A stretch of 64,000 nucleotides of DNA from Calditrichota bacterium (GTDB lineage Bacteria > Calditrichota > Calditrichia > Calditrichales > J004): NCBI GenBank assembly GCA_003696775.1, contig RFFS01000015.1, positions 10,386-74,385 of the forward strand. Reading direction: 5' to 3'. The notes under the pieces were generated by a model that did not search any database, was not told the DNA's origin, and saw only the letters and a list, made by a program, of their open reading frames with translations. Of this stretch, positions 11,886-50,622 are shown piece after piece. Made by a program: the position numbers and the translations under genes. Each line of letters opens with the position of its first letter. The first letter of the stretch is position 1.

Positions 11886-11890
11886 ACGAA

Positions 11891-14800: not shown

Positions 14801-16231
14801 ACTCAATTAAGTTATAACCCGGGTCATCGCCTTATCGTCGTCAGTGATAAGGTATTTCGGGTACTACCCGGAGAAGAGGGCGTGCCCCATGTGGCCGCAT
14901 TGACCGGCCTGTTGCGTTCGTTTGTTGTGGAAGAAAGTCGTTTTTCCTTTACCTGGATCGATACGGATGATTTGCCCCGGTTGGCACCCGGCGCTTTTAA
15001 CAACGGCATCTATGTCAACCGAATTATTGCCCTGCGCGGCGGCCAGCCCTACCGTAGGGAATTTGAACATATAAACGTTTCTTCCAACATATCCTTCCGG
15101 ACACAAGGCCACCCACGGGTGTTGATCACAGGTGGCACCGGCCAACTGGGGGCCTTGTGGGTGGATTACATCAGCAAACAATCCCCCGCGGATTTTTACC
15201 TGTTGAGTCGCAACGGTTTTCCTCCGGCTGAGCAATGGCCTTCCATGGGTAAAACCCATACGGCTTATAACCGGGCGATGATTTTCAGCGCGGCAGAAAA
15301 GCGTGGCAGCCGCATTCGTTTCATTACAGCGGATATGGGCGACACACAACAATTGGATCATACACTGAACAATTTAGACAAGCCCGATATCATCATCCAT
15401 GCCGCGGGACTGGTGGGTGAGGCCGCCATTCATCCTTTGTCTCAAGCAAAACAAGAGAATCCGGTTGTATTTGATGCCAAGGTGAACGGTACCAACCATC
15501 TTATCAAGTGGGCACGTGACAAAAAATGCCCTCTGGTTATTTTACAATCGTCCTTATCAGCGGAACTTGGCGGATATGGATTTTCCGCTTATGCCACAGC
15601 CAATGCCTATATGGATCAATTAACCGGCACATCGGATGAAACCCATATCATTACAATCAACTGGGATGGATGGCGTTTTGATACGGAAGATACAGATAAT
15701 GGTATCCCCAGAGAAGCCGCCGTTACCTTGTTTGACGGAGTTTTTAGCAACAGTCATCTTACACAAATCATTGTCTCTACCGAACCGTTACGGCAACGCA
15801 TGTTGACCTGGCAATACGATCGATCCAAAGCGGATGAAACTGTTACGGAAAACCGTGCTTTATATGATCGTCCCAATTTGCCCACGGCCTATGTGCCGCC
15901 AGAAAATGATCTGCAGGAAGAAATCGCTGCCGTTTGGCAAAATCTCCTGGGTATAGGTCAGGTGGGCATCCATGACGATTTCTTTGATCTCGGAGGCAAT
16001 TCCCTGATGGGCACGCAGCTCATCTCTCGAATGCGGGAACGTTTTAAGGTGGATGTGCCGGTTAAAGCTCTTTTTGAGAACCCGACAATCGCGGGAGTCA
16101 GTGCATTGATCGAAGCAGAACGGGAAAAAGGTCAAAAGCAGGAAGATGTTTTGGCCGACATGCTAAACAAAGTGGAAAACATGAGTCCCGAACAAATCGC
16201 GGCTATGTTAAATCAACAAAAAAAAGATTAA
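11891..16231 (+). CDS. PKS module (1446 aa): KS-AT-KR-carrier, no DH or ER
   Basis: ORF-track ORF starting 5 nt after the upstream stop. KS QTACSTSL/CHGTGT/NIGHLD, AT GHSIGE plus HAFHS, KR VLITGGTGQLG and SAYATANAY, carrier DFFDLGGNSL (NRPS-type T signature). Confidence 0.93.
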   Translation: MHTHINPDTDIAVIGMAGIFPDAPDVATFWNNLTQGKECITAFDPEALRQAGVPDDLIQDPAYIPRRGIIDNPTGFDAYFFDYAPNEAEIIDPQQRLFMETAWKALEDAACNPESYEGLIGLFGGVSMNTYLYRYLAARGQGFSSAEGYQLAIGNDKDFLTTRLSYKFNLRGPSVDVQTACSTSLVSVVLACQNLLNYSCDMALAGGASVTIPQEQGYMYQEGMILSPDGHCRPFDAKARGTISGNGVGVVVLKRAVEALEDGDHIYAIIKGAAYNNDGAQRVGYTAPSVDGQADVIATAQALADVSPDDISYVECHGTGTEMGDPIEITALKSIFAADGFTPNSCAIGSVKSNIGHLDAAAGIAGFIKAVLCLYHKKLVPTLHYQSPNPQIDFDQTPFYVNTAYRDWPTGALPRLAAVSSFGIGGTNAHVIVQEAPVQPHAEEPGPHLLCLSAKTTSALDAMTTRLADHLENNPDISLADTAYTLLIGRKHFSQRRMVCAVDKHEAVRLLRGEDPQRLLGMGHKKDPAPPQTAFLFSGQGSQYPLMGKGLYERYTVYRQAVDQCADLLKPHINKDIRELLYPKGDMEKAAKELNRTEYTQPALFVTEYALARLWASFGIRPRAMAGHSIGEYVAAHLAGVFSLEDALKLVARRGALMQSLPTGSMLSVPLDEHDVRDWCTDDVVVATVNSKGATVLSGPETSIRDVAAALREKGIESRLLHTSHAFHSPMMTPILDEFEAYCRTIAFKAPTLDYLSNVSGTWITAEEATDPAYYARHLRSTVRFYDNLTALYRDFKGILLECGPGKTLQSFATRHPEKSLDQVLLTSMRHPKDATDDVIFFMTALGRFWLAGQPLEADTLFHVSERRKCPLPTYPFEKKHYLLPIPKGDVIPPTTANHPPTQWFYTGYWKPDFSQLRHDEPLKARRSGVTATELKNIQDVSADEAIVTVWQPDPTRPLNDLYGELANLCTQLSYNPGHRLIVVSDKVFRVLPGEEGVPHVAALTGLLRSFVVEESRFSFTWIDTDDLPRLAPGAFNNGIYVNRIIALRGGQPYRREFEHINVSSNISFRTQGHPRVLITGGTGQLGALWVDYISKQSPADFYLLSRNGFPPAEQWPSMGKTHTAYNRAMIFSAAEKRGSRIRFITADMGDTQQLDHTLNNLDKPDIIIHAAGLVGEAAIHPLSQAKQENPVVFDAKVNGTNHLIKWARDKKCPLVILQSSLSAELGGYGFSAYATANAYMDQLTGTSDETHIITINWDGWRFDTEDTDNGIPREAAVTLFDGVFSNSHLTQIIVSTEPLRQRMLTWQYDRSKADETVTENRALYDRPNLPTAYVPPENDLQEEIAAVWQNLLGIGQVGIHDDFFDLGGNSLMGTQLISRMRERFKVDVPVKALFENPTIAGVSALIEAEREKGQKQEDVLADMLNKVENMSPEQIAAMLNQQKKD
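11915..13200 (+). other. Ketosynthase (PKS module 2, aminoacyl-accepting position)
   Basis: DIAVIGMAGIFPDAP, QTACSTSL, CHGTGTEMGDPIE, NIGHLDAAAG, GGTNAHVIVQEAP. Confidence 0.9.
13487..14340 (+). other. Acyltransferase, malonyl-type
   Basis: FLFSGQGSQY, GHSIGE (about 13767..13784), HAFHS (about 14060..14077). Confidence 0.8.
14600..15680 (+). other. Ketoreductase (structural plus catalytic subdomains)
   Basis: VLITGGTGQLGALW (about 15115), SSLSAELGGYGFSAYATANAY. No DH or ER motifs between AT and KR. Confidence 0.75.
15905..16115 (+). other. NRPS-type T domain terminating a PKS module
   Basis: AYVPPENDLQEEIAAVWQNLLGIGQVGIHDDFFDLGGNSLMGTQLISRMRERF. This is the YVAP..E..W..L..G..D.FF.LGG.SL pattern of PCPs rather than the GxDSL pattern of PKS ACPs. 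Confidence 0.75.
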
Positions 16232-16242
16232 GGGATTTAAAA

Positions 16243-16296
16243 CCACAAAGACACGAAGACACTAAGGTTTTTCTTTGCGCCTTAACATCTTTGCGG
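16243..16296. repeat. Intergenic imperfect palindrome, cassette 1 unit 1
   Basis: CCACAAAGACACGAAGACACTAAGG-TTTTT-CTTTGCGCCTTAACATCTTTGCGG. The outer arms CCACAAAGA / TCTTTGCGG pair (one G-U). Confidence 0.75.
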
Positions 16297-16308
16297 TAAA
16301 AAATAAAA

Positions 16309-16361
16309 CCACTAAGGCACGAAGACACTAAGTTCTTCTTTGCGGCTTAGCGTCTTTGTGG
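16309..16361. repeat. Intergenic imperfect palindrome, cassette 1 unit 2
   Basis: CCACTAAGG CACGAAGACACTAAG ttcttctttgcgg CTTAGCGTCTTTGTG G. The 15-nt arms give 13 Watson-Crick pairs, 1 G-U and 1 mismatch. Confidence 0.85.
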
Positions 16362-16384
16362 TAAAAAAAAATAAATGAATAAAA

Positions 16385-16448
16385 CTACTAAGGCACAAAG
16401 ATACAAAGGCACTAAGTTCCTTTTCTTTGCGTCATGGTTGTCTTACTA
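16385..16448. repeat. Intergenic palindrome, cassette 1 unit 3 (degenerate)
   Basis: CTACTAAGGCACAAAGATACAAAGGCACTAAGTTCCTTTTCTTTGCGTCATGGTTGTCTTACTA. The left half is conserved and the right arm is decayed. Confidence 0.55.
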
Positions 16449-16471
16449 TTAAAAGTGTGAGTTTTTAAACT

Positions 16472-19400
16472 ATGAGTTCTGTTTACGAACAAATTGCAAA
16501 CCTGCCCCCCGAAAAACGGGCGGTTTTGGAAATGATGTTACAGGAACAGGGTGTGGACCTGAGTCAGATGCCTATTTTGCCCGGGTCCGGTGACACCAGC
16601 GATTATCCGCTGTCATTTGCTCAGCAGCGTTTATGGTTTTTGGATCAACTGGAACCCGGATCGGCATTATATAATATCTGTTCGCCGGTACGCCTGCGTG
16701 GTAATTTGGATACCGACACCTTACACACTTCACTGGAAACCATCGTCCGGCGACATGCCGTTTTACGCACCACCTTTTACAAGGATGGCGCCGAACCCCG
16801 CCAAAAGGTACATGATGATATCCCCCTGAATTTCAAAATCATCGAATCATCCGATCCTGAAAAAATAAACGATCTGATCCGGGATGAAGCAGCCTACTCA
16901 TTCAACCTGGAACAGGAAGCGCCTGTCCGCATTCGTTTGTTTGTATTCGGACCAACGGATCATCTGTTGGTGGTCACCCTCCACCATATAGTTTCCGATA
17001 ACTGGTCAACCGGTGTGTTGATTCGTGAATTCATGGAATTGTATAATCAATCGCATCAAGGGCAAACACCTCAACTGACACCTTTAAAAGTGCAGTATGG
17101 TGATTTTGCCGCCTGGCAACGCAAATGGCTCAGTGGCAAAACCCTGGAACGGGAAGTAGCCTATTGGAAAGAAAAATTAGAGGGCTTGCCTCCTTTTTTG
17201 GATTTGCCCACCGATTTTCCACGACCGGCCTATCAAACGCATAATGGCGCGGCACAAAAACGTACGCTGGAAGCATCAACCGTTTCGGCACTGCGCTCCC
17301 TGGCCGATCAGAATGATGCAACCTTGTTTATGGTTTTAACAGCGGTATTTGAAGTTTTGCTATATCATTATAGCAAGCAAGATGATTTTGCCATAGGCAC
17401 ACCGATCGCTAACCGCAACCGGGTGGAAACGGAAGCCCTGATCGGTTTTTTCATAAATACTCTGGTGATCCGCGCGGATTTACAGGATATGCCAACGGTG
17501 AAAACACTACTGCAAAAAGTACGCGCTACCCTGCTCGAAGCCTATGCCCATCAGGATGTCCCTTTTGAGACCCTGGTGGAAAAACTCGATCCCGAACGCA
17601 GTATGAGCCATTCGCCGCTGTTTCAGACAATGATTGTATTAAACAATGCCCCGGTGGATACATTGAAACTTTCGGGACTCGAGCTGGAATTGCTTCATGC
17701 GGAAGACACTTCAAGTAAATTCGATCTGATCTTTAATTTTTATGAAGAAGAGGATCATATTTCCACTAAAGTCGAATACAATACCGATTTATTCCGTTCG
17801 GATACCATTACGCGCATGATCGACCACTTTCAACGACTGGCTTGCTGGATGGCTGAACATGCCGACACGTCAATTGACCGGGCCCGGCTCATGTCCACGG
17901 AAGAAGAGAGCGCCCTGTTGCAACAACTTGCGCGAAACGAAAGGATACTCCATTCCGAATCCTTACTGACGGATCTGATCCTGCAACAATGTAAGGTGCA
18001 GGGTGCCAAAGTAGCCTTAAAAAACGCGGAACATAGCCTGGATTATGCCGGTCTGGCACAGAGTATCCACGCCGTAAACACAATGTTAGCCGCAAAAAAC
18101 ATAACATCCGGTGATGTGGTGGCTGTTATGGCCCGCAGGCATCCGCTGACTGTGGCGGCCATGTTGGGCATCATGGCCCGGGGCGCTGTATTTTTGCCCC
18201 TGGACCCCGCCTATCCTGCTGAACGCCTGCGTTTTATGCTGGAAGACAGCGGCACACAATGGATATTATCGAATGATCCCACATCGCCAATCGAACTACA
18301 GCTTGTGGCCGGGCGTCCCTTGGAAATATTGGAAATACCCACTACCGCACCCGAAAAATTACCTGACATCGCGCGGACACCCGAAGCTCAGGCATATCTG
18401 ATTTATACATCAGGATCCACCGGACACCCCAAAGGGGTACGGGTCAACCAACAGGCCATCACCGACCACAGCGTGGATATGAAAAACTATTTTGAACTGA
18501 ATGAAAACGACGTAACATTACAATTCGCCGCCATGAATTTTGACGCGGCGCTGGAACAGCTATTTAGCCCCTTGCTGGCCGGCGCAACCGTGATCCTACG
18601 CGATGATGATATCTGGGCGCCGGAAATATTTTGCGACAAAATCAACGAACTGGGACTGACGGTTATCAACCCAACGACCGCTTACTGGAATCAATGGTGC
18701 GCCCATTTACCCGATAAAGACCACACGGGCTGTCCATCTCTGCGCCTTGTTATTTCCGGTGGCGATGCCATGCAACCTGCCGCCCTGGAAAAATGGCGGC
18801 ACTCATCATTAAGCAAAGTGCGGCTGATCAACGCGTACGGACCCACGGAAACCGTCATAACGGCAAGCTGTTATGATGTACCATCCGATGCACAGGCCCT
18901 GAAAGCCTATTATACTTTGCCCATCGGAACGGTAAACGCCAACCGTCATGCTTATATATTAGACGCTTCCGGACATTTGGCCCCACAGGGCATTCCCGGC
19001 GAACTCTGTATTGGCGGGACCAATGTAGCCATGGGGTACCATAACCGCCCGGAAGAAGAAGCCCGCGTCTTTGTCAACGATCCCTTTCATAAAGGTCGCC
19101 GTATGTATCGCACGGGTGATAAAGCACGCCTGGCCGCGGACGGCATGCTGGAATTTCTGGGGCGTATCGACCAACAGGTAAAAATACGCGGTTTTCGCGT
19201 GGAACCCGGTGAAATTGAATCCATACTGGCCGGTCATCCCGATTTGAGCGCCGTGGCGGTAGCGGTAAAGGAAGACGCCTTGGGCGAAAAACAACTGGTG
19301 GGGTATTTCATCCCCAAGGCAGGCAGTCAACCGGCCATACACGATCTGCGTGCTTTTATGCAAAGTCAATTACCCGCGTACATGGTGCCGGCGGCATTCA

Positions 19401-19825
19401 TCCAAATGGACACATTTCCCACATTGCCGGGCGGCAAAATCAATCGCCGCGCCTTGCCTGTTCCGGAAGACCTGCGCAGTCAGTTGAGCGCCGAATATGT
19501 GGCGCCGCGAACGGAAACGGAAGAGCAACTGGCCGCGATTGTGGCAAATGTGTTGCGCATCGAGAAAGTGGGCATACACGACAATTTTTTCGAACTCGGC
19601 GGTCATTCCATGCTCGGCACACAGGTCATGAGCACCATCCGCGAAACTTTCGGCGTGGAAATTCCCCTGCGCACCCTTTTTGAAAGCCCCACGGTGGAGG
19701 GCATAGCCCTGGCCATTACCGAAGCGTTGGCAGCCGGCATGGATAACGAAGAACTGGCCGGGATGCTGGATGAACTGGATGATTTATCCGATGATGAATT
19801 AAACGCCATGTTAAATGAAGAATAA
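16472..19825 (+). CDS. NRPS, one module (1117 aa): C-A-T with docking-like termini
   Basis: ORF-track ORF. C1 motif YPLSFAQQRLWFLDQ, HHIVSDNWS, A YTSGSTGHPKGV...GGKINRRALP, T FFELGGHSM, acidic C-terminal tail DELDDLSDDELNAMLNEE. Confidence 0.93.
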   Translation: MSSVYEQIANLPPEKRAVLEMMLQEQGVDLSQMPILPGSGDTSDYPLSFAQQRLWFLDQLEPGSALYNICSPVRLRGNLDTDTLHTSLETIVRRHAVLRTTFYKDGAEPRQKVHDDIPLNFKIIESSDPEKINDLIRDEAAYSFNLEQEAPVRIRLFVFGPTDHLLVVTLHHIVSDNWSTGVLIREFMELYNQSHQGQTPQLTPLKVQYGDFAAWQRKWLSGKTLEREVAYWKEKLEGLPPFLDLPTDFPRPAYQTHNGAAQKRTLEASTVSALRSLADQNDATLFMVLTAVFEVLLYHYSKQDDFAIGTPIANRNRVETEALIGFFINTLVIRADLQDMPTVKTLLQKVRATLLEAYAHQDVPFETLVEKLDPERSMSHSPLFQTMIVLNNAPVDTLKLSGLELELLHAEDTSSKFDLIFNFYEEEDHISTKVEYNTDLFRSDTITRMIDHFQRLACWMAEHADTSIDRARLMSTEEESALLQQLARNERILHSESLLTDLILQQCKVQGAKVALKNAEHSLDYAGLAQSIHAVNTMLAAKNITSGDVVAVMARRHPLTVAAMLGIMARGAVFLPLDPAYPAERLRFMLEDSGTQWILSNDPTSPIELQLVAGRPLEILEIPTTAPEKLPDIARTPEAQAYLIYTSGSTGHPKGVRVNQQAITDHSVDMKNYFELNENDVTLQFAAMNFDAALEQLFSPLLAGATVILRDDDIWAPEIFCDKINELGLTVINPTTAYWNQWCAHLPDKDHTGCPSLRLVISGGDAMQPAALEKWRHSSLSKVRLINAYGPTETVITASCYDVPSDAQALKAYYTLPIGTVNANRHAYILDASGHLAPQGIPGELCIGGTNVAMGYHNRPEEEARVFVNDPFHKGRRMYRTGDKARLAADGMLEFLGRIDQQVKIRGFRVEPGEIESILAGHPDLSAVAVAVKEDALGEKQLVGYFIPKAGSQPAIHDLRAFMQSQLPAYMVPAAFIQMDTFPTLPGGKINRRALPVPEDLRSQLSAEYVAPRTETEEQLAAIVANVLRIEKVGIHDNFFELGGHSMLGTQVMSTIRETFGVEIPLRTLFESPTVEGIALAITEALAAGMDNEELAGMLDELDDLSDDELNAMLNEE
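18036..19460 (+). other. Adenylation domain, unassigned code DAENIGAITK (acidic pocket residue; basic substrate suspected)
   Basis: FDAALEQ (D,A,E), VINPTT (N), VISGGD (I,G), NAYGPTETVIT (A,I,T). Shares D-A-E-x-I-G with the Lys code DAESIGSVCK as I recall it. Confidence 0.35.
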
Positions 19826-19845: not shown

Positions 19846-22800
19846 ATGAGTGATATTTCTAAAAAGCTGCAAAATCTGACACCGGAACAACGGGAACTGT
19901 TACTAAAAAAGCTGCGGGCCAAAAAAGCACAACAACAAACAACCCCGGAGACGGGTATTCCGAAGCGTCCGGAAAGTGCCGGCTATCCCCTGTCCCATGC
20001 CCAGGAACGGCTATGGTTCTTTGATCAACTGGCGCCCGGCAGCGCCTTATATAACATCAGCGCGGCTGTTTTATTCAGCGGCAGACTCGACACCCTAGCC
20101 CTCGAAAAAAGCATTCAAGCCGTGGTGGAACGTCATCAGGTGTTACGTGTCGCGTTTAAAACCGAAAACGGCGCGCCCGTTCAGGAACTCAACAAAAACC
20201 TTACCATCCCGCTTCAGGTAACCTCCGCTGACGGTCGCCCGCTGGAAGAGATCGCAGCCGAAGAAGCCCAAACACCATTCGATCTTACCCGCGCGCCGTT
20301 GCTGCGTGCCCGTTTAATCACACTCGACGATGAACGCAACGCGCTTTTACTAACCATCCATCATATCGTTGCCGATGGCTGGTCCATGGGGGTCTTCATC
20401 AACGAAACAGCCCGATTCTATCGCCGTTTTACGGGCGATGAGTCGGTTACGGTCGATCCGTTACCCATCCAATACTTCGACTATGCCCATTGGCAAAAAG
20501 AACGCATGGATCGTCCCGAACTAAAACAACAACTGGATTACTGGAGCGATGCCCTTAAAGGCATGCCGGTTCTTCTGGAACTCCCCCTGGATCATCCGCG
20601 CGGCGCGCTGCAAACATTTAAGGGGCGACACCATCATTTTACAATTGACTCAAAAACCACACAGGCCTTGCGTGATCTTTCCAGGCAAGAAGGCACAACT
20701 TTATTTATCACTCTGTTGGCCGCTTTCCAAACCCTGCTATATCGTTATGCCAATCAGGATGATTTTGGCGTGGGCATTCCCATAGCCAACCGTAATAAAA
20801 AAGAATTGGAAGCCCTTATCGGCTTTTTTGTCAACACACTGGTCATCCGCGCCCAACCCCGCGCCGACCAAACATTTGGCGCATTTCTTCAACAGGTCAG
20901 GCAAACCGCTTTCCGGGCATACGATAATCAGGATATCCCCTTTGAAAAAGTTGTGGAACGGGTTCAACCTAATCGCGATAATCAGGTTGCTCCTTTATTT
21001 CAGATGATGTTTGAACTTCAGGGTGACGCCCTCGGCGGCTTGAATTTTGGCAATCTAACACTGGAAAACATTCCCTTCGAAACGGGCACGGCCAAATTTG
21101 ACCTGCTGTTAATTATGGAAGAAAGCCGTGAAACACTCGGCGGCATCATGGAATATAATGCCGATTTATTCGAATCTTCCACGATTGAAAGGATGATGGG
21201 ACATTTTACACACATACTGAAACAGGTCGCCCGCCATCCCGATACACCTTTATCCGCCATCCGTTTGTTGGACGAAAAAGAGCAACGCCATATCCTGAAG
21301 GATTGGAACGATACGGCTGTGCCCTACCCCGCAAAGCCCTTTATCCATCAATATACAAAGCAACATGCACTAAAACGTCCCGGTCATCCCGCCCTTGTTT
21401 ATGATGAAGGCATTATGGATTACGCGCGTTTTGAGGCCCTGACCAACAAACTGGCCCATGCTTTGATCAAAATGGGCATAAGTTGTGACGACCGTATAGG
21501 CGTTTGCATGGAACGCGCTCCGGAAATGGTGATCGCCCTGCATGGCATCCTAAAAGCCGGCGGTGCTTATGTGCCATTTGATCCGCATCATCCGGAAGAC
21601 CGCCGCGCATTCATGATGGAAGATTCCGGTATCCGTTTGATGCTGACACAACCGGCTTTGCACCATTTATTTGATAATAAACCCATCGAATGCCTGGTGC
21701 TCGACAGAACTTTTGAAACCCTGGGTGATTATCCGGAAGATGAGCCGGGCATCAAGATAGACGGTGATCAATTGGCCTATATGATTTATACTTCCGGTTC
21801 CACCGGCAAGCCAAAGGGCACCCTTTTGGCCCATAAAAGCATCCTTAACCGCCTGCAATGGATGCAGGAGGCCTATAAGCTGACTCCGGACGATGTAGTT
21901 CTACAAAAAACACCCTACAGCTTTGATGTTTCGGTATGGGAATTTTTCTGGCCGTTTATGCAAGGCGCCACACTCGTGGTGGCCCGGCCGGAAGGTCATA
22001 AGGATACGGGATATTTAACCGATGTGATACGCCGACAAGGTGTAACCACCATGCATTTTGTTCCACCCATGCTTAAGGTATTTCTGGAAGACCCGGACAG
22101 CCGGTCCTGTGTTTCCCTTAAGCGGGTAATATGTTCCGGCGAGGCCTTGCCCTATGCCCTGAGTGAGAAATTTTACGAACAGTTACCCCGGGCTACCCTC
22201 TACAACCTGTATGGCCCCACGGAAGCCGCTGTGGATGTTACCGCCTATACATGTCCCGTAAAACGAGCTGACATGCGCTTGCCCATAGGCGTGCCCATAG
22301 CCAACACCGGCATTTACATACTCGACAAAGCCTTAAACCCTGTACCGCCGGGTGTGGGGGGCGAATTACATATCGCGGGCGTGCAGTTGGCCCGCGGCTA
22401 TGCCAACCGCCCTGATTTGACAGCGGAGAAATTTATACCCGACCCGTATTCCGAACAACCCGGCAGCCGTATGTACAAAACCGGTGATTTATGCCGCTAT
22501 CTTGACAACGGAGAAATCGAATACCTGGGACGTTTGGATCATCAGGTCAAGATTCGTGGTTTCCGTATTGAACTGGGCGAGATCGAGACCACTTTGCGCC
22601 AACATCCGGATATTCAAGATGCCCTGGTCCTGGCACGCGGTCAGGGTGAAGAGAAGACCTTAATCGCCTGGTATATCACACCTGACGGAGACGATCCGGG
22701 CAGCGAAAACTTATCTGTTCATTTACGTCAACATATGCCGGACTATATGGTGCCGTCGTTTTTCGTTAAAATCGATACCTTTCCACTGACCGCCAACGGA

Positions 22801-25800
22801 AAAATTGACCGCCGTGCCCTGCCCGATCCCAAGCGCGCCGTTCAAGAAAACAATGTGCGCTTTGTTTCGCCCCGAAACCGCCTGGAAGCCTACCTCGCCG
22901 AACAATGGAAGGATGTGCTCGGTGTGGACAAATTGAGCATGTATGATAATTTCTTTGATCTGGGGGGCAATTCCTTAAAAGCGGCCGTTTTGATAAACCG
23001 TTTGCAGGAAATCGTTAAAAAGCGGTTGCATGTCGGCATGGTTTTTCAGGCCCCGCGCATCGCGGAATTTGCCATGTTCGCCCAGGAATATTTTAGCGAG
23101 GATGTTCTGGAAAAATTCGGCCCCACATCCATTAAAAATCAGGATTATTTTAAAATCAGCAAAATATCCGCCGCTTATAATCTGAGTGATAACGAATTCG
23201 AAAAATTCCGATCCATAATCCACCCGATTTCCACACAAACCGTTAAGGCGCAACGTCAGGCCAAAAACCCGCCGGCCGTATTCATTTTGTCGCCGCCCCG
23301 TTCCGGTTCCACCCTGCTGCGGATCATGCTGGCGGGGCATAATAAATTGTTTTCCCCTCCGGAACTGGACCTGCTTTCTTTTAACACAATGAAAGAAAGA
23401 TATGAATTCTTTAAAGCCAATAAATTGGACCTGTGGCTCGAAGCGACCACCCATGCGCTAAAGGAAACCCTGCATCTTACCACCGAAGAGGCGGAAAAAC
23501 GCATGCGGGAAATCGTAGAACAGGACATGGCTGTTAAAGACTTTTATTATCTTCTTCAAAGCGAACTAAGGGATCGTCTGCTGGTGGATAAAACCCCCTC
23601 CTATGCCCTGGATGAAAACATTTTAAATAAAATGCTGCGGGATTTTGATAATCCCTATTTCATACATCTTTCCCGTCATCCTTATGCCATGATATATTCA
23701 TTTATAGAAGCGAAGCTGGATAAAAACTTCTTTAAATACAAACATAGCTATAACCGCCAGCAGCTTGCTGAATTGATCTGGACAACCAGCCATCAAAATA
23801 TCACGCATTTTTTGGAAAAGGTACCGGCCGATCGTCAGATTCATCTGCGTTTTGAAGATATTTTACAACACCCTGAAGCTGCCATGCGCCAGATTTGTGA
23901 TGTATTGAACATCGAATTTGATCCGGAGATGCTCCGCCCCTATCAGGGACAAAAGATGACCGAAGGCCTTAAAGACCATTCTCAAATGGTAGGCGATTTC
24001 AAATTCTATCTTCATCAGGATATCAACCGTAATGTGGCGGACAAATGGCGTTCCTTCCATAAGGAAGATTTTTTGGCGGATGTAACGGAAAATCTGGCTG
24101 AAAGTCTGGGCTATGTCCCTCAAACCGAACAGTTGGATAGAGGGCTGGTGAACAACGTCATTCAGGAGATAACACCTGTCGAACGGCAGACGTATATGCC
24201 CTTATCTTTTGCCCAGCAACGGTTGTGGTTTATAGATCAACTGGAACCCGGTTCCACGCAATATAATGTCCCCGGCGCGGTACGTATTCACGGCCCCATC
24301 GATGCGGAACGTTTCCGTGAAAGCATGCGCCTTCTTGTGGAACGGCATGAAATTTTACGTACCAGTTTCCATACGGTGGAAGGCCAGGGCATGCAAAAAA
24401 TTCACGCAACCATGCCCGTGCCGTTCAAAGTGATCGATTTAAGGCACCTGCCGGCTGATCAGGCGGAAAAAGAAGCGGCCCAAATGGTTTCAAAAATGAC
24501 CGCCACCGTGTTCCGTCTCGATACGTTGCCGCTGTTTAAAACATTTTTATACCGCCTGACCGATGATGAGGCCATCCTGTTGCTGATTGCCCATCATATC
24601 ATTACAGACGGGTGGTCCAATTCTATTTTTATACAAGAAATCAGCGATCATTACCAGGCGCTGGCCCGTTCCGGCGCATATCATGCGCCGCGCTTATCCG
24701 TTCAATATGTGGATGTGGCCGATTGGCAACACCGTTGGATCGAGTCGCAACATGCGCGCCAACAATTGGCCTACTGGCAAAAAGAGCTGGCGGACGCTCC
24801 GCCTCTACTCGAAATACCCACCGACTTTCCGCGTCACCCGCATCGAGATCGCAAAGGGCGCAGGCTTTACTTTTCATTGTCCCCGGACCTTTCACGGGCC
24901 ATTAGGCAGTGTTGTACAAAAAACGGGCAGACGGCATTTATGATGCTTGTGGCCGCCTTCAAAACCCTTATGCACCATTATGCCCGTCAGAACGATGTGC
25001 TGATAGGAACACCCGTGGCCGGACGTACCCGTAAGGAAATGGAAGAATTGATTGGCTTTTTTGTGAACACTTTGGTTTTGCGCACGGTTTTCCAATCTCA
25101 CGATCGTTTTAAGGATATCCTGGAACGGGTTCGGCATACGGTTTCCAACGCTCTTAAAAACCAGGATTATCCTTTTGACACCCTGCTCGAAGCACTAAAA
25201 ATTGAACGTCATCTGGAACACAGTCCCCTGTTTCAGGTGATGTTTGCCATGCAAAGCGATGATACCAGGGCATTCAGCGGAGACTTACGGGTAACCCCCT
25301 ATCAAACCGATACGGGTGCCGCCAAGTTCGACCTGATGCTGGAAATGTATGACAGTGATACCCTGCATGGTGTTTTTGAATACGATACTTCCCTTTTTCG
25401 CGAATCCACCATTGAGCGAATGAAAAATCATTTCCTTTTGCTGCTGGAAGTCGTCAGCAAACAACCGGATGCCCGGATCGGCAGCCTCTATTTTCTGACC
25501 GCCGGGGAAGAACAACGCATTCTGCATGACTGGAATGCCACCCACACCCCCTGGCCCGTCGATAAGATGATTCCGGAGCTAATCCGTGAACAGGCCCGGC
25601 GTACCCCAATGGCCCCGGCCCTGAAAGATGCGCACAAAACCTATACCTACGCCGAATTTGACTCGAACGTTTCACGTTGGGCGGCCTGTCTGAAAAACAA
25701 AGGTCTTAAAACAGAACAACGTGTCGGTATTTACATGCAACGCTCCGCGGACCTTGTACTGGCCTTGCACGCGGTGATGCGCGCCGGAGGTGTTTATGTA

Positions 25801-28752
25801 CCGTTGGACCCGGGCCATCCGCCGGAACGCACCCGGTTTATGATCGAAGACGCCGATGCGGTAATGATAATAACCGATTCCGTAAATCACAACAAAGGGG
25901 CTTTCACGGATATTCCGGTTTTAACAACGGCAACCCTTCACGAGGAAGCCGCATCATTAAAAGAGGATACACCGCTCCCCTCTTATGATCCGCAACAACT
26001 GGCCTATATGATATACACCAGCGGCTCCACGGGAAAACCCAAGGGTACGTTGTTGCAACATGCTGGTTTTCTTAACCGTTTACAATGGATGCAGGATGCC
26101 TATCCCCTGGATGAAAACGACCGCGTTTTGCAAAAAACACCTTTTAGTTTTGATGTCTCCGTTTGGGAATTTTTCTGGCCGTTTATGACCGGAGCCACGC
26201 TTGTTGTGGCTAAACCGGAAGGCCATAAAGACCCGGCTTACCTGGCCGATCTGATCCGGGAAGAACAGATCACAACCCTGCACTTTGTACCGCCCATGTT
26301 AAAAGCCTTTCTGGAAGAGCCTACGGTACCCGGGTGCGTCAGCCTGAAAAATGTCATCTGCTCAGGTGAAGCTCTGCCTTATACCCTTAGCCGCCGTTTT
26401 TATGAATTGCTGCCCGACTGTCGTCTACACAACCTGTACGGCCCCACGGAAGCCAGCATTGACGTCAGCCATTACACCTGTCCTGTTTCAAGGGAAGATG
26501 AAAAACTCCCCATCGGGAAACCCATTGCCAATACCCGTCTTTATATCCTGAACGACGCCTTGCAACCGGTTCCCGTAGGAGTAAGCGGCGAACTCCACAT
26601 CAGCGGAATACAATTGGCCCGTGGCTATGCCAACCGCCCGGATTTGACAGCGGAAAAATTTATTCCCGACCCGTTTACCAACACACCAGGCGCGCGCATG
26701 TATAAAACCGGCGATTTATGTCGCTATCTGGAAAACGGCGAAATTGAATACATCGGCCGGATCGACCACCAGGTAAAAGTGCGGGGTTTCCGTATCGAAC
26801 TGGGGGAAATTGAAGCGGCCCTGCGTAGTCTCGATCCGGTGGAGGATTGTAGCGTACAGGTGCGGGCCTACGGGGGGCAGGATAAAGCGCTGGTAGCCTA
26901 TATCGTTGCCGCCGATACCGGAACCACACCGGGCGCTTTACGCGACGCATTGAAAGACAGCCTTCCGGATTATATGATTCCAGCCGCCTGGATATTTTTG
27001 GACGCCATTCCTCTCACCGCCAACGGAAAAGTGGATCGCCGGGCCCTGCCCGATCCCTGGGAATTGGGGCGCAGCACGCTCGAAACCGAATATGTGGCCC
27101 CGCGTAACGAAAAAGAAGAACTTTTGGCGGGTTTGTGGCAATCCCTTCTTAAACTGGAAAAGGTCGGCGTGAAGGATAACTTTTTTGAACTGGGTGGTGA
27201 TTCCATCGTCGGCATTCAATTGATTTCCGCGGCCGGGCGCGCCGGACTCACGTTTACCCCGCGCGAACTGTTTGAATATCCCACAATAGAAGGACTGGCT
27301 GCCATTGCCCGGCAGGGTGTGGCCATTCATGCGGAACAGAATACGCTTACCGGTCCGGTTGGGAAACTTCCTATTCATTACTGGTTTGACGCATTGGATT
27401 TACCCCAACGCCACCATTGGAACCAATCGGTGATGCTGCAAAGCCATGCTCCCCTGAATCCCGATATGCTCAAACAGGTAACGCGCCTTCTGCTGGAACG
27501 TCATGACATGCTGAGATGGCGTTATGCCGATGACGAACAGACTATCCTGCCGTTATCGGAAGACACGCCGTTTGTATATCATGACTGGCGGGAAGTACCC
27601 GTGACGGAACAAAAGTCCAAGCTTGCTCAAACCGTTACGGCATTACAAAGCGGCCTGGACCCGACACGTGGTCGTGTATTTTCCGTTGCCTATTTCAGTC
27701 TCTCTCCGGAAACAGGCGACCGCCTGCTGATCGTGGCTCATCATCTTGTGGTGGACGCGGTTTCCTGGCGGGTAATTTTGGAAGACCTGCAACTGGCCTA
27801 CACACAACTAGCCGAAGGTAAATCCGTCGCCTTGCCGGAGAAGACGACTTCCTTCCCTTATTGGGCAGAACGTTTACAGCGTTACATTCAGGAAACCGAT
27901 CTGCAAAACGAACGGACCTATTGGCTGAAAAGCATCCCCGAAACGGCACACACCCTGCAGGTGAAACATCCCGCGCACAATGTTCAGAAAAACGTCACCG
28001 TATTGGAACGGGAACTGGACGCTATGCAAACCAACCGCCTGCAACAGGACGTACCCGACGCTTACAACACACGGACACAGGAAAACCTGCTGGCCGCCCT
28101 TTACCGGGCCTGGTATAAAATAAGCGCTCAACCCGATTTATTGATTGATATGGAAAGTCATGGGCGGGAGGCACTATTCGCCGAAGTGGATTTATCACGC
28201 ACCGTCGGTTGGTTCACAACACTGTATCCGGTGGTTTTAAAGACCTCTGCACCGGATAACATGGAAGTGGTCATCAAGGAGATCAAGGAAGGTCTTCGGG
28301 GCATACCGTCCAACGGTTTTCACTACGGATTGTTGCGCTATCTGGGCCCGGCATCCGATGTAAAAGCCCTGGCGGACAAACCCATTTCAGGCATCTTATT
28401 CAATTATCTCGGCGTGTTTGAACAGGATGAAGCCCTGCGCCGTCGTTTTGAAATACGGCCGGAAGAATCAGGTCCGGAAATAGGCCCGGAGAACCGACGC
28501 AGCCACGCATTGGAAATAACCGCCAGCATTGTGGACGGCGTACTTAAATTCAGGTTTATTTATTGCCCTCCAGCCGTGGACGCAACCCTGATTACCCGAC
28601 TGGCCGATACATTGATGGATGAATTGAACGCACTAATCGAGCACTCGCTATCGGAAGAAGCGGGCGGCTATACGCCCTCCGATTTTGCCGAGGCGGGTCT
28701 TGATCAGGACGAACTGGATGATGTTTTATCCGAATTGGATGATTTGGAATAA
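19846..28752 (+). CDS. NRPS, two modules with embedded sulfotransferase (2968 aa): C-A(Ser)-T-ST-C-A(Ser)-T-E
   Basis: ORF-track ORF. [30 protein letters not shown], then [15 protein letters not shown] / FSPPELDLL / [11 protein letters not shown] (sulfotransferase), then [45 protein letters not shown] (T preceding an E domain), [17 protein letters not shown] (E). Confidence 0.93.
   Translation: [2968 protein letters not shown]
21415..22823 (+). other. Adenylation domain, Ser code DVWHISLVDK
   Basis: FDVSVWE (D,V,W), MHFVPP (H), VICSGE (I,S), [11 protein letters not shown] (L,V,D). Compare Stachelhaus Ser DVWHLSLIDK. Confidence 0.7.
22870..23080 (+). other. T domain immediately upstream of the ST domain
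   Basis: [23 protein letters not shown]; Ser codon 22972..22974. Confidence 0.85.
23269..24115 (+). other. Embedded sulfotransferase (ST) domain, CurM/olefin-synthase-like
   Basis: [44 protein letters not shown] (PRSGST = 23296..23313; Glu of PPEL = 23362..23364), [38 protein letters not shown]. Flanked by a T domain upstream and C1 motif [12 protein letters not shown] downstream (about 24195). Confidence 0.8.
25641..27050 (+). other. Adenylation domain, Ser code DVWHISLIDK
   Basis: [30 protein letters not shown]. Confidence 0.7.
27340..28690 (+). other. Epimerisation domain (predicts D-Ser)
   Basis: Preceded by T with GGDSI. [26 protein letters not shown] (HH at about 27738), [17 protein letters not shown]. 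Confidence 0.85.
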
Positions 28753-28768: not shown

Positions 28769-29722
28769 ATGAATGATAAACAAATACCCAACGGTATTCT
28801 TGTAAGCGGATTGGTGCGTTCCGGCACCACCTGGACAGCGCGCATGCTGAATTTTTCCCCACAAACCATTTTTGTGCTGGAACCTTTCAACATATTGCGT
28901 GATCCCATCCATTTGCTCAAGGCCGGCACCAATTATCCCTATTGGTCTCATCCGGATGCACACATTTTTCAAAAAATCCGAAGCGGCGTCGGTTTAAGTT
29001 TTACACCGGAAGAGTTCAGGATTTTCATGAAAGAATCTTCCTCGTTCAAATATCATCTGTATCATCTCGTACGCTATATAACACTCAACCGCCGTATAAA
29101 AAAAGGGATGCGCCCGGTGGTTCAGGACCCGTTCGCCATATTCATGGCCCCCTGGCTTTACGAAAAGCTAAGTTTGCGTCCCCTGTTTCTTTTTCGTCAT
29201 CCGGCGGCCTATATCAACAGCATGAAACGCATGAAATGGGGCTTTAATTTTGACTGGCTGGCGCGACGGGAATCCTTGATGGAGGGGGTGTTATCTCCTT
29301 TCAAGGATGAAATCCTGAAATGGGCGCCGAAGGCATTCATCCCTTTTTCCATTGAAACCCAGTGTCTGGTCTGGAATATCTTTACCGGCATCATGCTAAC
29401 CTACCGTGATACTTATCCGGACTGGTTGTTTTTTCGCCATGAAGACCTTTCCATGGAACCGGTGGCTCATTTTAAAAAAATTTATCACGAATTGGGTTTC
29501 CCTTTCAGCGCACCGATTATAAAAAAAATAGAAGAATTCACGGGTACCGGGAACACGGTCGAAGCCAAATCCGGTAAAATGCATACCCTTAAACGAAACA
29601 ACCGCGCCAATGTAAAATTATGGCAAAAACAACTGGAACCGGCCGAAATCACGCTTATTCGCAAACAGACGGAACAGGTGGCCGCACGTTTATATGACGA
29701 CGACTCCTGGCCGAAATTATGA
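28769..29722 (+). CDS. Stand-alone PAPS-dependent sulfotransferase (317 aa from ATG 28769)
   Basis: In frame with ORF-track ORF 28685..29722. N-terminal GILVSGLVRSGTTWTARML (5'-phosphosulfate-binding loop). FVLEPF, FLFRHPAAYINSMKR and FFRHEDLSMEP parallel [21 protein letters not shown] and [11 protein letters not shown] of the embedded ST domain. ATG 28769 lies 16 nt after the upstream stop. Confidence 0.8.
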   Translation: MNDKQIPNGILVSGLVRSGTTWTARMLNFSPQTIFVLEPFNILRDPIHLLKAGTNYPYWSHPDAHIFQKIRSGVGLSFTPEEFRIFMKESSSFKYHLYHLVRYITLNRRIKKGMRPVVQDPFAIFMAPWLYEKLSLRPLFLFRHPAAYINSMKRMKWGFNFDWLARRESLMEGVLSPFKDEILKWAPKAFIPFSIETQCLVWNIFTGIMLTYRDTYPDWLFFRHEDLSMEPVAHFKKIYHELGFPFSAPIIKKIEEFTGTGNTVEAKSGKMHTLKRNNRANVKLWQKQLEPAEITLIRKQTEQVAARLYDDDSWPKL

Positions 29723-29737
29723 GGACTTTTTAATTTA

Positions 29738-32700
29738 ATGAACGCCAAAAAATCTCAAAAAAAGAATATTGAAGCGATCTACCCCCTTTCGCCCATGCAG
29801 GAGGGGATGCTTTTTCATTCCTTGTTGGAACCGCAAAGCGGTACTTATACGGAACAGCTCTATTTTGATATAAACGGCAATCTTGACATTGAATTATTTA
29901 AAAAAGCCGTTGGCGATCTTATAAAACGCCATACCATTTTACGCACATCCTTTATCTATAAAAAAAGCGCCAAACAACTTCAGGCCGTGTTTAAGGATGT
30001 ACCGTTGCCCCTGCATATATCGGACTGGCAAGAAAAAGATGCCTCCGGCATGGATCGGGCATTTCAGGAATTACTGGAAGAAGACCGAACCCGCGGATAT
30101 GATTTAAGCAAGGCGCCGTTGCTTCGCATTTATCTCATTCGGATCGGCGCGGAAAAATGGCGTTTGTTATGGAGCAACCACCATATCATTCTCGACGGTT
30201 GGTCCACACCGATCCTGCTTCAGGAATTATTCATACTTTATGAATCCGCCTTCCGCGGCCATCCCGTCACCCTGCCACCCGCCCGGCCGTTTAAGGAATA
30301 TATCATGTGGCTAAACCGGCAAAACCCGGAAAAAGCCATGACGCATTGGCGGTCCTTACTGGCGGATATTCAGGCGCCCACGCCGTTTAACATTGACAAA
30401 TTACCGTTCAGGGATCAAAACACACCGGCATACGCTAAGGCGGAAATTCAACTCGACAACGTGCTGACACAACGTCTGAAAGAACTTGCCAGGCAAAACG
30501 GCATAACCCCCAACACCCTTATGCAAGGCGCCTGGAGCCTCCTGCTCCATCATTACAGCCGGGAAAACAAGGTCGTCTTCGGGGTAACGGTTTCCGGACG
30601 CCCCGCCGAAATCCCGGAAGTGGAAAGGATGGTGGGACTGTTCATCAATACTCTGCCCTTGTGTGTGGAAACAAGGCCGTCCGCGGAAACAGATGACTGG
30701 TTGCGTGACATTCAAAAACAGGCCGTTGCCATGCGTGACTTCGAATACAGCCCCCTGGCCGATGTGCAACGACAAAGCGGTATTAAGGGGCACGCGCCTC
30801 TGTTTGAAAGTATCCTGGTTTTTGAAAATTACCCGGTGGAAGAGGAAATGGCCAAACAGAAAAGGACGGTCTCCTTCTCCGGTTTCGGCGGTTATGAACA
30901 AACCAATTTCCCCCTGACCCTGCTGGTGGGTATTCGTGATAACTGGGTCATCGAGGCGTCGTATCAAACCCAACGTTTCAGCGCGGACCTTATTAACCGC
31001 ATGTTAGCACATCTCAAAAACTTATTGATTTCCTTTGCCCAAAATATTACCGCGCCGTTGGCCGCTCATTCCTGCTTATCCGGGGAAGAATACAACACCC
31101 TGTTGGCCCGGTCCGTTGGCCCCGCCAAATCGTATGACCCGAACGCCTATATCATTCCTGCTTTTGAAAACACGGCACAACGTCTTCCCGATCATCCGGC
31201 GTTGATTTTTGAAAATCAATCCATCCCCTACGCCACCTTTCATACCGCCGTGAATAATCTGGCAAAAAACTTAACGGATGCCGGTGTACGCCCGGAAGAC
31301 CGGGTGGCTGTTTTTATGGAACGTTCGCCGGAAATGGTTACAGCACTGTACGCGGTTATGAAATGCGGGGCGGTGTATGTCCCCGTCGATCCGACCAACC
31401 CCGCGGAACGCATTCGCTATATGCTCAACGATTGCCAGTCAAAATTGCTTTTAACGCAAGATAAGTGGCAGGATCACCCTGTTCTCAACGACCATAAAAG
31501 CCTTTTGGTGGATTTTGACAGTCTTTCAGCGACCGCCGGTACGGGCGCCCCGTCGGTTCCCCTTTTCGGACAGCAGGCGGCTTATATGATTTACACCTCC
31601 GGTTCCACCGGCGCGCCCAAAGGCACACTTGTCAGCCACCAGGCCATACGTAACAGACTGAAATGGATGCAGGAAACCTTTTCTCTGACGACTGAGGATA
31701 AAGTATTACAAAAAACACCTTACACGTTTGACGTGTCTGTTTGGGAATTTTTCTGGCCGCTCACAAACGGCGCCACGCTTGTCATCGCCCGCCCGGAAGG
31801 CCATAAAGACCCTGAATATCTGATCCATGTCATCAGGGAAACGGGCGTGACAACGTTACACTTCGTTCCTCCCATGCTTCAGGTTTTCCTGGAATCGCCT
31901 CATGTGGGACAATGTACATCCTTAAAACGAGTCATCTGCTCAGGTGAAGCGCTCCCTTATGCCCTTAAAGAGCGATTTTACAAATTATTGCCGGAAAGCC
32001 GGTTGCATAACCTCTACGGCCCCACGGAAGCGGCGGTGGATGTAACCCACTATGCCTGCCCTGAAGAATCGCCTTATGCCCTTTTACCCATCGGAAAAGC
32101 CATAGCCAACACATCCATTTATATTCTGGATCACCGTCTTCATCCGGTACCGGATGGCGTGCCGGGAGAATTGTTCATCGGCGGCATACAGGTGGGTCGG
32201 GGTTATTTTAACCGACCCGGTCTTACCGCTGAAAAATTCATTCCGGACCCCTTTTCTTTCCAATCCGGCGCCAGAATGTACCGGACAGGCGACCTGGTAC
32301 GCAAACTGCCAGACGGTGAAATCGATTATATCGGCCGCATGGACTTTCAACTGAAAATCCGCGGATTCCGCATCGAACTGGGCGAAATAGAACATCAGCT
32401 TACACGGTTTGAATCCATACGCGAGGCCGTGGTACTGGCGGTTGAACCCCACCCCGGCAACAAACAACTGGCGGCTTATTTTATCCCGACTTCAGCGGAA
32501 TCAGTCCCTGGCCCGGATGCACTTAAATCCTTTTTAAGTAAACATCTGCCTGATTATATGATTCCCACCTATTTTATACCGATGGACGCTTTTCCACTGA
32601 CACCCAACGGTAAAATCGACCGACGCGCTCTGCCCCGGCCGAAAGCCCCGGAATCCAATGAAAGCCATGTGGCGCCGGCCAATGCCACCGAGGCCACCCT

Positions 32701-43976: not shown

Positions 43977-44014
43977 CCCTTTACATACGTTTTATTTGAG
44001 GATTGCAACCGTAT

Positions 44015-50000: not shown

Positions 50001-50392
50001 ACGGTAAAGTGGATCGAAAAGCCTTGCCCGCCCCGGAGGGAGATCGTAGTCAGTTGAATGTTGAATTCATTGCCCCGAGAAATGAAACCGAAGAAAAACT
50101 GGCGGCTATCGTCAGTGAATTACTCCATGTGGAAAAAGTGGGGGTTTATGATAACTTTTTCGATCTCGGTGGGCATTCGCTTTTGGCCACGCAATTCATG
50201 TCGCGCATACGAAGCACGTTCGACATCGAACTGCCTTTGATGACCTTATTTGAAAAGCCGACCATTGCCGACTTAAGCGATCAGGTGGAGATAGCCAGGG
50301 CCAGTGGCATGAAAGCCAAGCCTAAAATTGAAAAGATTGAAAGGGCCGCGCGTCCGACGGCACGTCGCCCTGCGCGCCGGTCAAGAAAATAA
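44015..50392 (+). CDS. NRPS, two modules (about 2125 aa from ATG 44015): DCL-A(?)-T-LCL-A(Phe)-T
   Basis: ORF-track ORF 44003..50392. I prefer ATG 44015 because GAGGA at 43997..44001 is 13 nt upstream of it, whereas TTG 44003 is only 1 nt after that motif. [13 protein letters not shown] plus HHILLDGWA (DCL), [66 protein letters not shown], basic C-terminal tail. Confidence 0.9.
   Translation: [2125 protein letters not shown]
44030..45310 (+). other. DCL-type condensation domain
   Basis: [23 protein letters not shown] (HH at about 44434). Follows the E domain of the previous protein. Confidence 0.75.
45472..46857 (+). other. Adenylation domain, unassigned code DASTIVGIGK
   Basis: FDAAVSE (D,A,S), VTLPPS (T), VISVGE (I,V), [11 protein letters not shown] (G,I,G). 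The D-A-S-T start resembles Tyr-type codes, but Gly at 322 and 331 does not match any code I can recall. Confidence 0.3.
48635..50030 (+). other. Adenylation domain, Phe code DAWTIAAVCK
   Basis: [30 protein letters not shown]. Confidence 0.7.
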
Positions 50393-50401
50393 TGCATTAA
50401 A

Positions 50402-50449
50402 CCACGAAGTCACTAAGTTCTTTCTCTTTGCGTCTTAGAGTCTTTGTGG
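50402..50449. repeat. Intergenic imperfect palindrome, cassette 2 unit 1
   Basis: CCACGAAGTCACTAAG ttctttctctttgcgt CTTAGAGTCTTTGTGG. About 13 of 16 arm positions pair, plus one G-U. Confidence 0.8.
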
Positions 50450-50471
50450 TAAAAAAATTAAATGAATAAAA

Positions 50472-50527
50472 CTACTCAGGCACGAAGACACTAAGTTCTT
50501 TCTCTTTGCGTCTTAGAGTCTTAGCGG
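50472..50527. repeat. Intergenic imperfect palindrome, cassette 2 unit 2
   Basis: CTACTCAGGCACGAAGACACTAAGTTCTTTCTCTTTGCGTCTTAGAGTCTTAGCGG. Confidence 0.8.
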
Positions 50528-50550
50528 TAAAAATAATTAAAAGAACAAAA

Positions 50551-50598: not shown

Positions 50599-50622
50599 TA
50601 TAAATGAAAAAAACGAACGCAT

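Follow-up and report, generated by a model that had tools for sequence, protein, structure and literature searches.

A CurM-type sulfotransferase domain in the middle of a lipopeptide synthetase from a Calditrichota bacterium, with a candidate role in peptide sulfation

This report concerns a sulfotransferase (ST) domain embedded in the non-ribosomal peptide synthetase (NRPS) gene g4 of a Calditrichota bacterium (GTDB lineage J004, assembly GCA_003696775.1). The window, i.e. the whole stretch of DNA that was analysed, comprises 64,000 nucleotides of contig RFFS01000015.1 (positions 10,386 to 74,385). All its large genes lie on the + strand, as do all features of the window described below, and their coordinates refer to the window. 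Gene g4 (19846..28752) is a single open reading frame (ORF) of 2968 aa. Its condensation (C), adenylation (A), thiolation (T) and epimerization (E) domains are arranged as C-A(Ser)-T-ST-C-A(Ser)-T-E, an order obtained from profiles built on the window's own domains. Pfam detects three Condensation, two AMP-binding and two PP-binding stretches in g4 and places Sulfotransfer_3 behind the first carrier domain and ahead of the second C domain. The C domain of module 3 (19948..21309, with HHIVADG at 20359..20379) is followed by the A domain (21355..22836) and by the T domain, here T3 (22852..23100), in which the phosphopantetheine (Ppant) serine is intact (GGNSL, 22963..22977). A linker of about 50 aa (23101..23244) leads to the ST domain (23245..24114). 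Behind it lie a C domain of the LCL type (24166..25539, HHIITDG at 24592..24612) and module 4 (25561..28725), which consists of A (code DVWHISLID, Ser), T and E.

Specificity codes were read by aligning every A domain to a GrsA ruler. That the ruler reproduced its own code, DAWTIAAIC, and gave canonical codes for other domains supports this use of it. For module 3 the alignment yields DVWHISLVD, a code for Ser. Domain order, Ser specificity and the direct fusion of the ST to the preceding T domain in a Ser-coded module, with a C domain next, had been read from the sequence in an initial annotation, and all three were borne out by the ORF, Pfam, the profiles and the codes.

The insert was assigned to the family of the STs from CurM (curacin A) and olefin synthase (OLS). 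Sulfotransfer_3 covers aa 1143-1360 of g4 with an E-value of 6.9e-30, where its 105 bits exceed the cut-off of 27, and no NCBIfam model covers the domain. By sequence, the best match in the PDB is CurM ST (4gbm, E 1.1e-67, 290 residues aligned) and the second is OLS ST (4gox, E 9.9e-65), followed by tyrosylprotein sulfotransferases at an E-value of about 1e-4. The AlphaFold model of the domain (pLDDT 90, pTM 0.89) also retrieves 4gbm (TM 0.83/0.90) and 4gox (TM 0.83/0.91) first in Foldseek. Identity to the CurM and OLS STs amounts to about 40-47%, and to 38-40% across the Foldseek structural alignment. Hence, the proposal that the insert resembles these STs rather than cytosolic-type enzymes agrees with profile, sequence and structure searches alike.

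All motifs on which that proposal was based are present, and the phosphosulfate loop and the candidate catalytic Glu align as had been claimed. The 5'-phosphosulfate-binding loop SPPRSGST (23290..23313) contains the equivalent of CurM Arg39 at 23299..23301. In PPELDLL (23356..23376) the Glu codon lies exactly at 23362..23364 and aligns to CurM Glu60, which McCarthy et al. reportedly proposed in 2012 as the catalytic base of CurM ST. The Lys of VDKTP (23590..23592), aligned to CurM Lys133, is intact as well, and RHPYAMIYS (23674..23700) corresponds to the 3'-phosphate-binding region. The equivalents of CurM Arg39, Thr43, Glu60 and Lys133 are each kept in 100 of 100 aligned ST domains from several phyla. 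Presumably, these residues have the roles of their CurM counterparts. Judged by sequence and predicted fold, the insert is an intact ST of the type that uses 3'-phosphoadenosine 5'-phosphosulfate (PAPS); it would probably be active, act in cis and leave the sulfate in place. It departs from the CurM/OLS family in two features. The CurM/OLS motif PPELHLL reads PPELDLL, with Asp (23368..23370) in place of His62, a position that defines ST subtypes and is D, E, A, Q, Y or N in NRPS-embedded relatives. Moreover, the ACP-ST-TE tridomain, in which the TE couples hydrolysis to a decarboxylative elimination of the sulfate, is not found here: behind the ST come C-A-T-E and a further ten modules.

Within the window, the carrier domain that precedes the ST is an unusual one. 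T3 scores 28 bits against the T domain of g3, while other T domains score 48-98 bits, and it has GGNSLKAA where others have GGHSLLA. Among orthologs, by contrast, T3 is the best-conserved domain (up to 88% for T2 and 83% for T1). Locus L003, for instance, shares 77% identity with the window in T and 67% in ST, compared with 43% in C, 39% in A and 39% in the next C; T and ST are thus the best-conserved domains of the bimodule, whereas C and A diverge. A carrier that is unusual in its own line and yet most conserved among orthologs suggests that T3 and the ST are a co-evolving pair.

Read from its domains, the surrounding assembly line is a 14-residue lipopeptide synthetase primed by FAAL and polyketide synthase (PKS) modules. 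Nearly the whole megasynthase lies inside the window, and just the C-terminal part of the thioesterase (TE) domain is past its end. The upstream part (g1-g3, 12..19825) starts with g1 (12..11885), FAAL-ACP-KS-AT-DH-ER-KR-ACP-C-A(Tyr code)-T, which includes a fully reducing PKS module. Gene g2 (KS-AT-KR-ACP) lies between g1 and g3, within 12..16231, and g3 (16472..19825) encodes C-A(DAENIGAIT)-T. Together, g1 and g2 are predicted to provide an N-terminal N-acyl gamma-amino-beta-hydroxy (statine-like) unit, in which residue 1 is extended by g2; such an N-terminus is reminiscent of aspartic-protease inhibitors. The C domain of g3, which takes over the chain from the PKS ACP, shows HHxxxDNWS, with Asn for Gly, and this is kept across the syntenic family. 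Modules 5-14 are encoded by g6-g9 (29738..64000); g9 begins at about 50620, ends in the sole TE of the line, more than 39 kb downstream of the ST, and runs off the window. Module 3 has a Ser-coded A domain and is without a KR, and the nearest KR product arises two modules upstream, in g2. A Ser code occurs in four modules of the window (3, 4, 5 and 7), but the ST is present in module 3 alone.

For a scan of relatives one genome per species was used; 324 stretches encode ST relatives, and 78 loci were kept. They derive from metagenome-assembled genomes (MAGs) of Calditrichota, Anaerolineae and other Chloroflexota, Acidobacteriota, Bacteroidota/Ignavibacteriota and others, and the closest relatives of the window ST are from Calditrichota MAGs (64-71% identity). 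The 78 annotated loci contain 97 ST domains, nearly all in the arrangement A-T-ST-C. An exhaustive search of 1.84 billion 50%-identity cluster representatives gave 1,095 proteins that match the ST at E<=1e-30, and the best 148 of these are mostly megasynthases of 1,000-7,000 aa with the ST in mid-line. A 44-mer from the end of the window was sought as an exact match in metagenome contigs, and none was found. A metagenome scan with the T-TE region found distant relatives alone (<=40% identity), and an ST was present in 1 of 80 of these loci. The insert is therefore rare per NRPS, to judge from these unrelated NRPS-terminus loci, yet numerous in absolute terms.

Several other architectures occur in the family. 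In the lines P0355, P0361 and P0365 (KS-AT-KR-ACP-ST-C) a CurM-family ST stands right after KR-ACP and is followed by C, not TE. Stand-alone carrier-ST didomain proteins of about 430 aa with Tyr62 were the commonest matches of the first homolog search. The Thiothrix nivea DSM 5205 locus L079 (JH651384.1) contains an Asp/Glu racemase, two further STs and an NRPS with the order A-T-ST-C-A-T-Ox, whose loading A domain is without Asp235. Interrupted A domains in ST modules were considered as well. The apparent A-A splits are due to profile fragmentation, and no inserted domain was present in those examined; one larger A-domain gap of about 190 aa was noted in the module after the ST in L060.

Across the family the ST is associated with particular amino acids. 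The 107 A-T-ST modules of the representative set include codes for Ser (20), Thr (19), Tyr-like residues (9), 2,4-diaminobutyrate (Dab, 6), homoserine (Hse)-like residues (2) and a 4-hydroxyphenylglycine (Hpg)-like residue (1). Hydroxy-amino-acid codes are found in 51 of these 107 modules, compared with 14 of 78 non-ST modules of the same proteins (p 2.5e-5, uncorrected for phylogeny). The Acidobacteriota lines that contain two or three ST modules in a row have codes for Thr, Tyr or Ser in every ST module and Gly-like codes in the non-ST modules. Family-wide, the ST thus often appears to act on the side chain of its own module. Behind Tyr- or Hpg-like modules STs would be decorating enzymes, because those residues cannot eliminate sulfate.

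Typing at position 62, the site of CurM His62, splits the NRPS-embedded STs into types, and the type of the window ST behaves differently. Of 33 typed cases with Glu62, 30 have Ser, Thr, Tyr or an Hpg-like residue in their own module, and the Ala/Gln62 type goes with DAE-type codes. For the Asp62 type, 40 cases were typed: 31 are Val/Ile-like, 4 Ser, 2 Asn-like, 1 Gln-like and 2 of unknown code. The contrast between Glu62 and Asp62 has a Fisher p of 7e-13, uncorrected for phylogeny. All four Ser cases of the Asp62 type are the window and the loci closest to it, L001, L002 and L004; L077, which has a Ser code and an ST cut by the contig end, was left out of the typing. The Asp62 cassette occupies one syntenic position, [KS-AT-KR-T][C-A(DAENIGAIT)-T][C-A(x)-T-ST-C-A-T-E], in which x is variable. 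This head is common to at least four phyla, and the tail varies. In the closest representative ortholog, P0248, the ST is 63% and the T domain 78% identical to the window and the code is that for Val; Val codes are likewise found in the orthologs at 63-67% ST identity.

A change of x towards Thr- or Tyr-like residues in Asp62-derived lineages is accompanied by Glu62 together with the exchanges of W81 to V/L and of F267 to L (L019, L025, L034, L045, L050 and others). Alternatively, a second T-ST is added in the same module (L025, L028, L045 and P0245). In these T-ST-T-ST tandems (L025, L028, L045 about 10 kb into the locus, and P0245) the first ST has Glu62 or Ala62 and the second Asp62, so that a single module would host two distinct sulfonations or two acceptors. 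In the window clade, D62, W81, Y168, Q262, F267 and Y270 are unchanged. A re-specialisation of its ST towards Ser was considered and rejected: M90K and W124E/G also occur in Val/Ile-partnered sisters, and no substitutions exclusive to the window clade were found in comparison with these sisters. The simplest reading of this pattern suggests that the acceptor of the Asp62 cassette is independent of residue 3. If Val and Ile stay unmodified, the acceptor must lie in the upstream chain.

We propose with moderate confidence that a cis-acting, PAPS-dependent ST sulfates the chain tethered to T3 and that the sulfate is retained. The Asp62 ST would work in cis on the thioester-tethered intermediate of T3, with PAPS as the sulfate donor, and the sulfate would then pass on with the chain through the ordinary LCL C domain. 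The stand-alone ST encoded by the next gene, g5, may add further sulfation. Tentatively, we favor a hydroxyl or an amine in the upstream part of the T3-tethered chain as the acceptor. It may be the hydroxyl that the KR leaves on the gamma-amino-beta-hydroxy unit from g1/g2 or the side chain of residue 2 (DAENIGAIT), and Ser-3 could be an extra or alternative acceptor. The O-gamma of Ser-3 as the acceptor is itself a serious candidate, to be held with similar reserve. For the orthologous cassette as a conserved unit, the upstream chain is the more likely acceptor on the available codes, since in syntenic clusters this cassette follows Val/Ile-coded modules. Partial support for a KR-derived hydroxyl comes from P0355, P0361 and P0365, in which the ST directly follows KS-AT-KR-ACP.

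A number of points weigh against an upstream acceptor. An ST two modules past the KR-ACP is an odd route to a KR-derived hydroxyl, all the more as P0355, P0361 and P0365 put it right after KR-ACP. In-line tailoring domains usually modify the residue of their own module, so that the enrichment of Ser, Thr and Tyr favors Ser-3. Position 62 co-varies with the own-residue class of the module, which suggests that the side chain of residue 3 lies near the catalytic centre. The Val/Ile assignments derive from specificity codes alone, and a trans-acting beta-hydroxylase may exist in Val/Ile-type clusters, since the cluster borders that were inspected are those of window-like relatives. Finally, acceptor and activity are deduced from sequence for every member of the family.

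The initial annotation had proposed that carrier-bound Ser is O-sulfonated on-line. In the strongest rival to an upstream acceptor, the side chain of Ser-3, as an aminoacyl or peptidyl group on T, is O-sulfonated and O-sulfoserine is kept in the product; we regard this as possible but somewhat doubtful. The A domain is indeed coded for Ser, which is the commonest own-residue code of ST modules (20 of 107) and is enriched relative to non-ST modules. The seryl beta-OH also matches the hydroxyl of the CurM substrate in its placement with respect to the thioester, and position 62 tracks the own-residue class. The family-wide enrichment of Ser, Thr and Tyr thus speaks for this part of the earlier claim, but the cassette to which the window ST belongs does not, since it stands mostly behind Val/Ile codes and shows no re-specialisation. 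The window ST retains every Asp62 signature of the Val/Ile-partnered orthologs, and those at 63-67% ST identity are Val-coded. Furthermore, the Ser modules 4, 5 and 7 of the same line are without an ST, and Thr as the residue in this lineage comes with Glu62 or a second ST.

A more general statement is that Asp62-type T-STs sulfonate a target other than their own residue, namely a remote KR hydroxyl or the amine or hydroxyl of the preceding residue, or that their activation of a vicinal amido-alcohol or of a backbone oxygen prepares a ring closure. In this wide form we judge it rather unlikely. The sulfate-leaving-group route to dehydroalanine is counted among such readings.

That route was also put forward in the initial annotation: sulfate on Ser-3 would be a leaving group, with dehydroalanine formation or ring closure when the chain reaches the next C domain. 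Such a ring could be an oxazoline. A beta-sulfate beside a thioester is chemically prone to elimination, which counts for such a step. The domains around the window ST do not favor it. The downstream C domain has the canonical motif HHIITDGWS, and in a clustering of 240 C domains those that follow an ST fall together with the ordinary LCL domains of the cluster to which they belong. A special clade of C domains after STs was sought in this clustering, which was run without reference dehydrating C domains, and none was found. Neither a TE nor a dehydratase or other eliminating partner is adjacent to the window ST. In addition, the same cassette stands behind Val/Ile, Gln-like and Asn-like modules, and sister types stand behind Tyr-/Hpg-like modules, where elimination is impossible. 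In the founding members CurM and OLS the sulfate does act as a leaving group, in a decarboxylative elimination catalysed by the TE, and ST homologs without a TE are expected to yield sulfated products (PMC11730487). With an ordinary LCL C domain next, and neither a TE nor a specialised C domain, the chain probably keeps its sulfate, which makes a sulfated lipopeptide the likely product; use of the sulfate as a leaving group at Ser-3 appears improbable, and nothing that was found supports this part of the earlier proposal.

Equally improbable is that the cassette always sulfonates a beta-OH of its own residue, which a trans-acting hydroxylase would create in the orthologs as beta-hydroxy-Val or -Ile and which Ser offers directly in the window. 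Stand-alone T-ST (Tyr62) proteins do adjoin genes for Cupin_8 (JmjC-type) oxygenases in Thiothrix nivea (L079) and in a Phormidesmis MAG (L080), so that a hydroxylate-then-sulfonate logic may exist elsewhere in the ST family. Asp62, which is shorter than Glu, and the aromatic pocket of Y168, F267 and Y270 may also suit bulkier beta-substituted residues. However, the sequence within 10 kb of the STs in the 78 loci contains no oxygenase gene. Their flanks are almost all NRPS, and the few border genes encode PAPS synthase, transporters and regulators. No oxygenase was seen upstream of the g1 homologs (feoAB and a regulator) or downstream of a terminal TE that is 60% identical to that of the window; such borders, seen in window-like relatives alone, weaken the hydroxylase idea for Val/Ile-type clusters. 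The Thr module of L025, whose residue is itself beta-hydroxylated, has both a Glu62 and an Asp62 ST. O2-dependent hydroxylation may also be disfavored in the many hosts from anoxic sediments.

Very improbable is an ST that is silent on the chain, as a relic or a purely structural insert: many Val/Ile-type orthologs have no evident acceptor, but Arg39, Thr43, Glu60 and Lys133 are invariant in 100 domains of several phyla, T-ST is the best-conserved part of the bimodule, and in L030 a PAPS synthase gene is adjacent. The latter (L030:4645-6450, a Bryobacterales MAG) combines PUA, ATP-sulfurylase and APS-kinase and is the immediate upstream neighbour of a C-A-T-ST(Asp62)-C gene, which argues that T-ST domains really consume PAPS.

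Directly behind g4, g5 (28769..29722) encodes the putative stand-alone ST mentioned above. It is divergent: its Pfam match is weak (1.4e-6) and no match to it was found by sequence in the PDB, but its RSGTTW loop and RHP..S motif are intact. The Met at 28769 is the likelier start, compared with the TTG at 28685 of the ORF list, which overlaps g4. Orthologs of g5 were found in the Ser-type relatives L001 and L004 alone. In place of g5, other syntenic clusters have a next gene whose first module contains an in-line ST of the Ala/Gln62 type. The idea that g5 is a detached copy of this in-line ST was rejected, because it matches any in-line ST with an E-value of about 1e-6 only.

The borders of related clusters were inspected for further genes. 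Directly upstream of the g1 homologs in L081 and L082, both of which were examined, lie feoA-feoB, for the uptake of ferrous iron, and a small regulator. The adjacency of feoAB may be genome synteny or a hint of a metal-related role of the lipopeptide. In L083 (11283-15752), the region downstream of the terminal TE that is 60% identical to that of the window encodes a stand-alone Sulfotransfer_3 protein, an MFS transporter, MbtH, a type II TE and a PPTase. This Sulfotransfer_3 protein is a third kind of stand-alone ST, to which g5 is unrelated. STs are the sole tailoring enzymes seen in the cluster family of the window.

Among characterized systems, the STs of CurM and OLS are closest. They share the fold, the PRSGST loop, Glu60 and Lys133 with the window ST, and they are also fused directly behind a carrier domain and act on a thioester-tethered substrate. 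Their acceptor is the beta-hydroxyl that a KR of the same module has created on the tethered acyl chain. In contrast to the window, the modules upstream of them are KS-AT-KR-ACP rather than NRPS C-A-T, a TE follows instead of a C domain with ten more modules, and His62 is present where the window ST has Asp. Since a C domain and further modules take the place of the TE, the sulfate is unlikely to serve decarboxylative release here. OciA (cyanopeptolin/oscillapeptin, PMC2533009) and DysB (dysinosins, PMC6520454) have an ST in the NRPS loading region for sulfated glyceric acid. As in g4, this ST is part of an NRPS protein and adjoins a carrier domain, and the sulfate is retained in their product. 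They are set apart, on their descriptions, by FkbH-type loading on glycerate, compared with an amino-acid elongation module here; among the Pfam domains of g4 (C, A, T, ST and E only) there is no FkbH-like glycerate loading domain, and the ST belongs to module 3 of 14.

SulN of sulfazecin biosynthesis acts in trans and performs the PAPS-dependent N-sulfonation of 2,3-diaminopropionate (Dap) on the last module, after which the TE forms the beta-lactam (PMC11298585). PAPS-dependent sulfonation of a carrier-tethered peptide on the assembly line would be common to SulN and the window ST, but SulN is a separate protein, whereas the window ST is inside the NRPS polypeptide. The putative ST of g5 could fit this trans-acting description. 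The tyrosylprotein sulfotransferases TPST1/2 are the next-best relatives (E of about 1e-4 by sequence, 1e-9 in Foldseek) and have a Glu catalytic base and peptide acceptors, as is proposed for the window ST. They differ in that they are only 14-20% identical and are Golgi enzymes that act on free proteins.

Full-text literature searches returned no description of a T-ST-C arrangement in mid-line of an NRPS or of O-sulfoserine in non-ribosomal peptides, and nothing on the A-domain codes in question. The initial annotation had named no precedent for T-ST-C inside an elongation module. This holds for the searchable literature but not for sequence space, where the arrangement is common. The family is thus large and apparently unstudied.

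Few non-ribosomal peptides are sulfated, and on-line sulfonation is known from special cases, namely the CurM/OLS release, the loading of glycerate and the action of SulN in trans. With more than 1,000 50%-identity clusters, the cassette of a carrier domain and its fused ST recurs as a building block in NRPS and PKS lines, and most of these clusters are in phyla without characterized natural products. The sequence subtypes of the ST track the amino acid of the host module. Consequently, we offer a candidate rule for genome mining by which sulfated Ser, Thr, Tyr or Dab positions would be predicted. The target of the Asp62 type behind Val or Ile is the puzzle that this rule leaves, and we consider it the most interesting lead. 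The near-complete megasynthase in the window and a cultured carrier of T-ST, Thiothrix nivea, make the question experimentally approachable. If the Asp62 type does sulfonate a target other than its own residue, carrier-fused STs would be modular, position-specific tailoring domains in the NRPS lines of uncultured phyla, and the subtypes D, E, A/Q and Y would encode the acceptor class.

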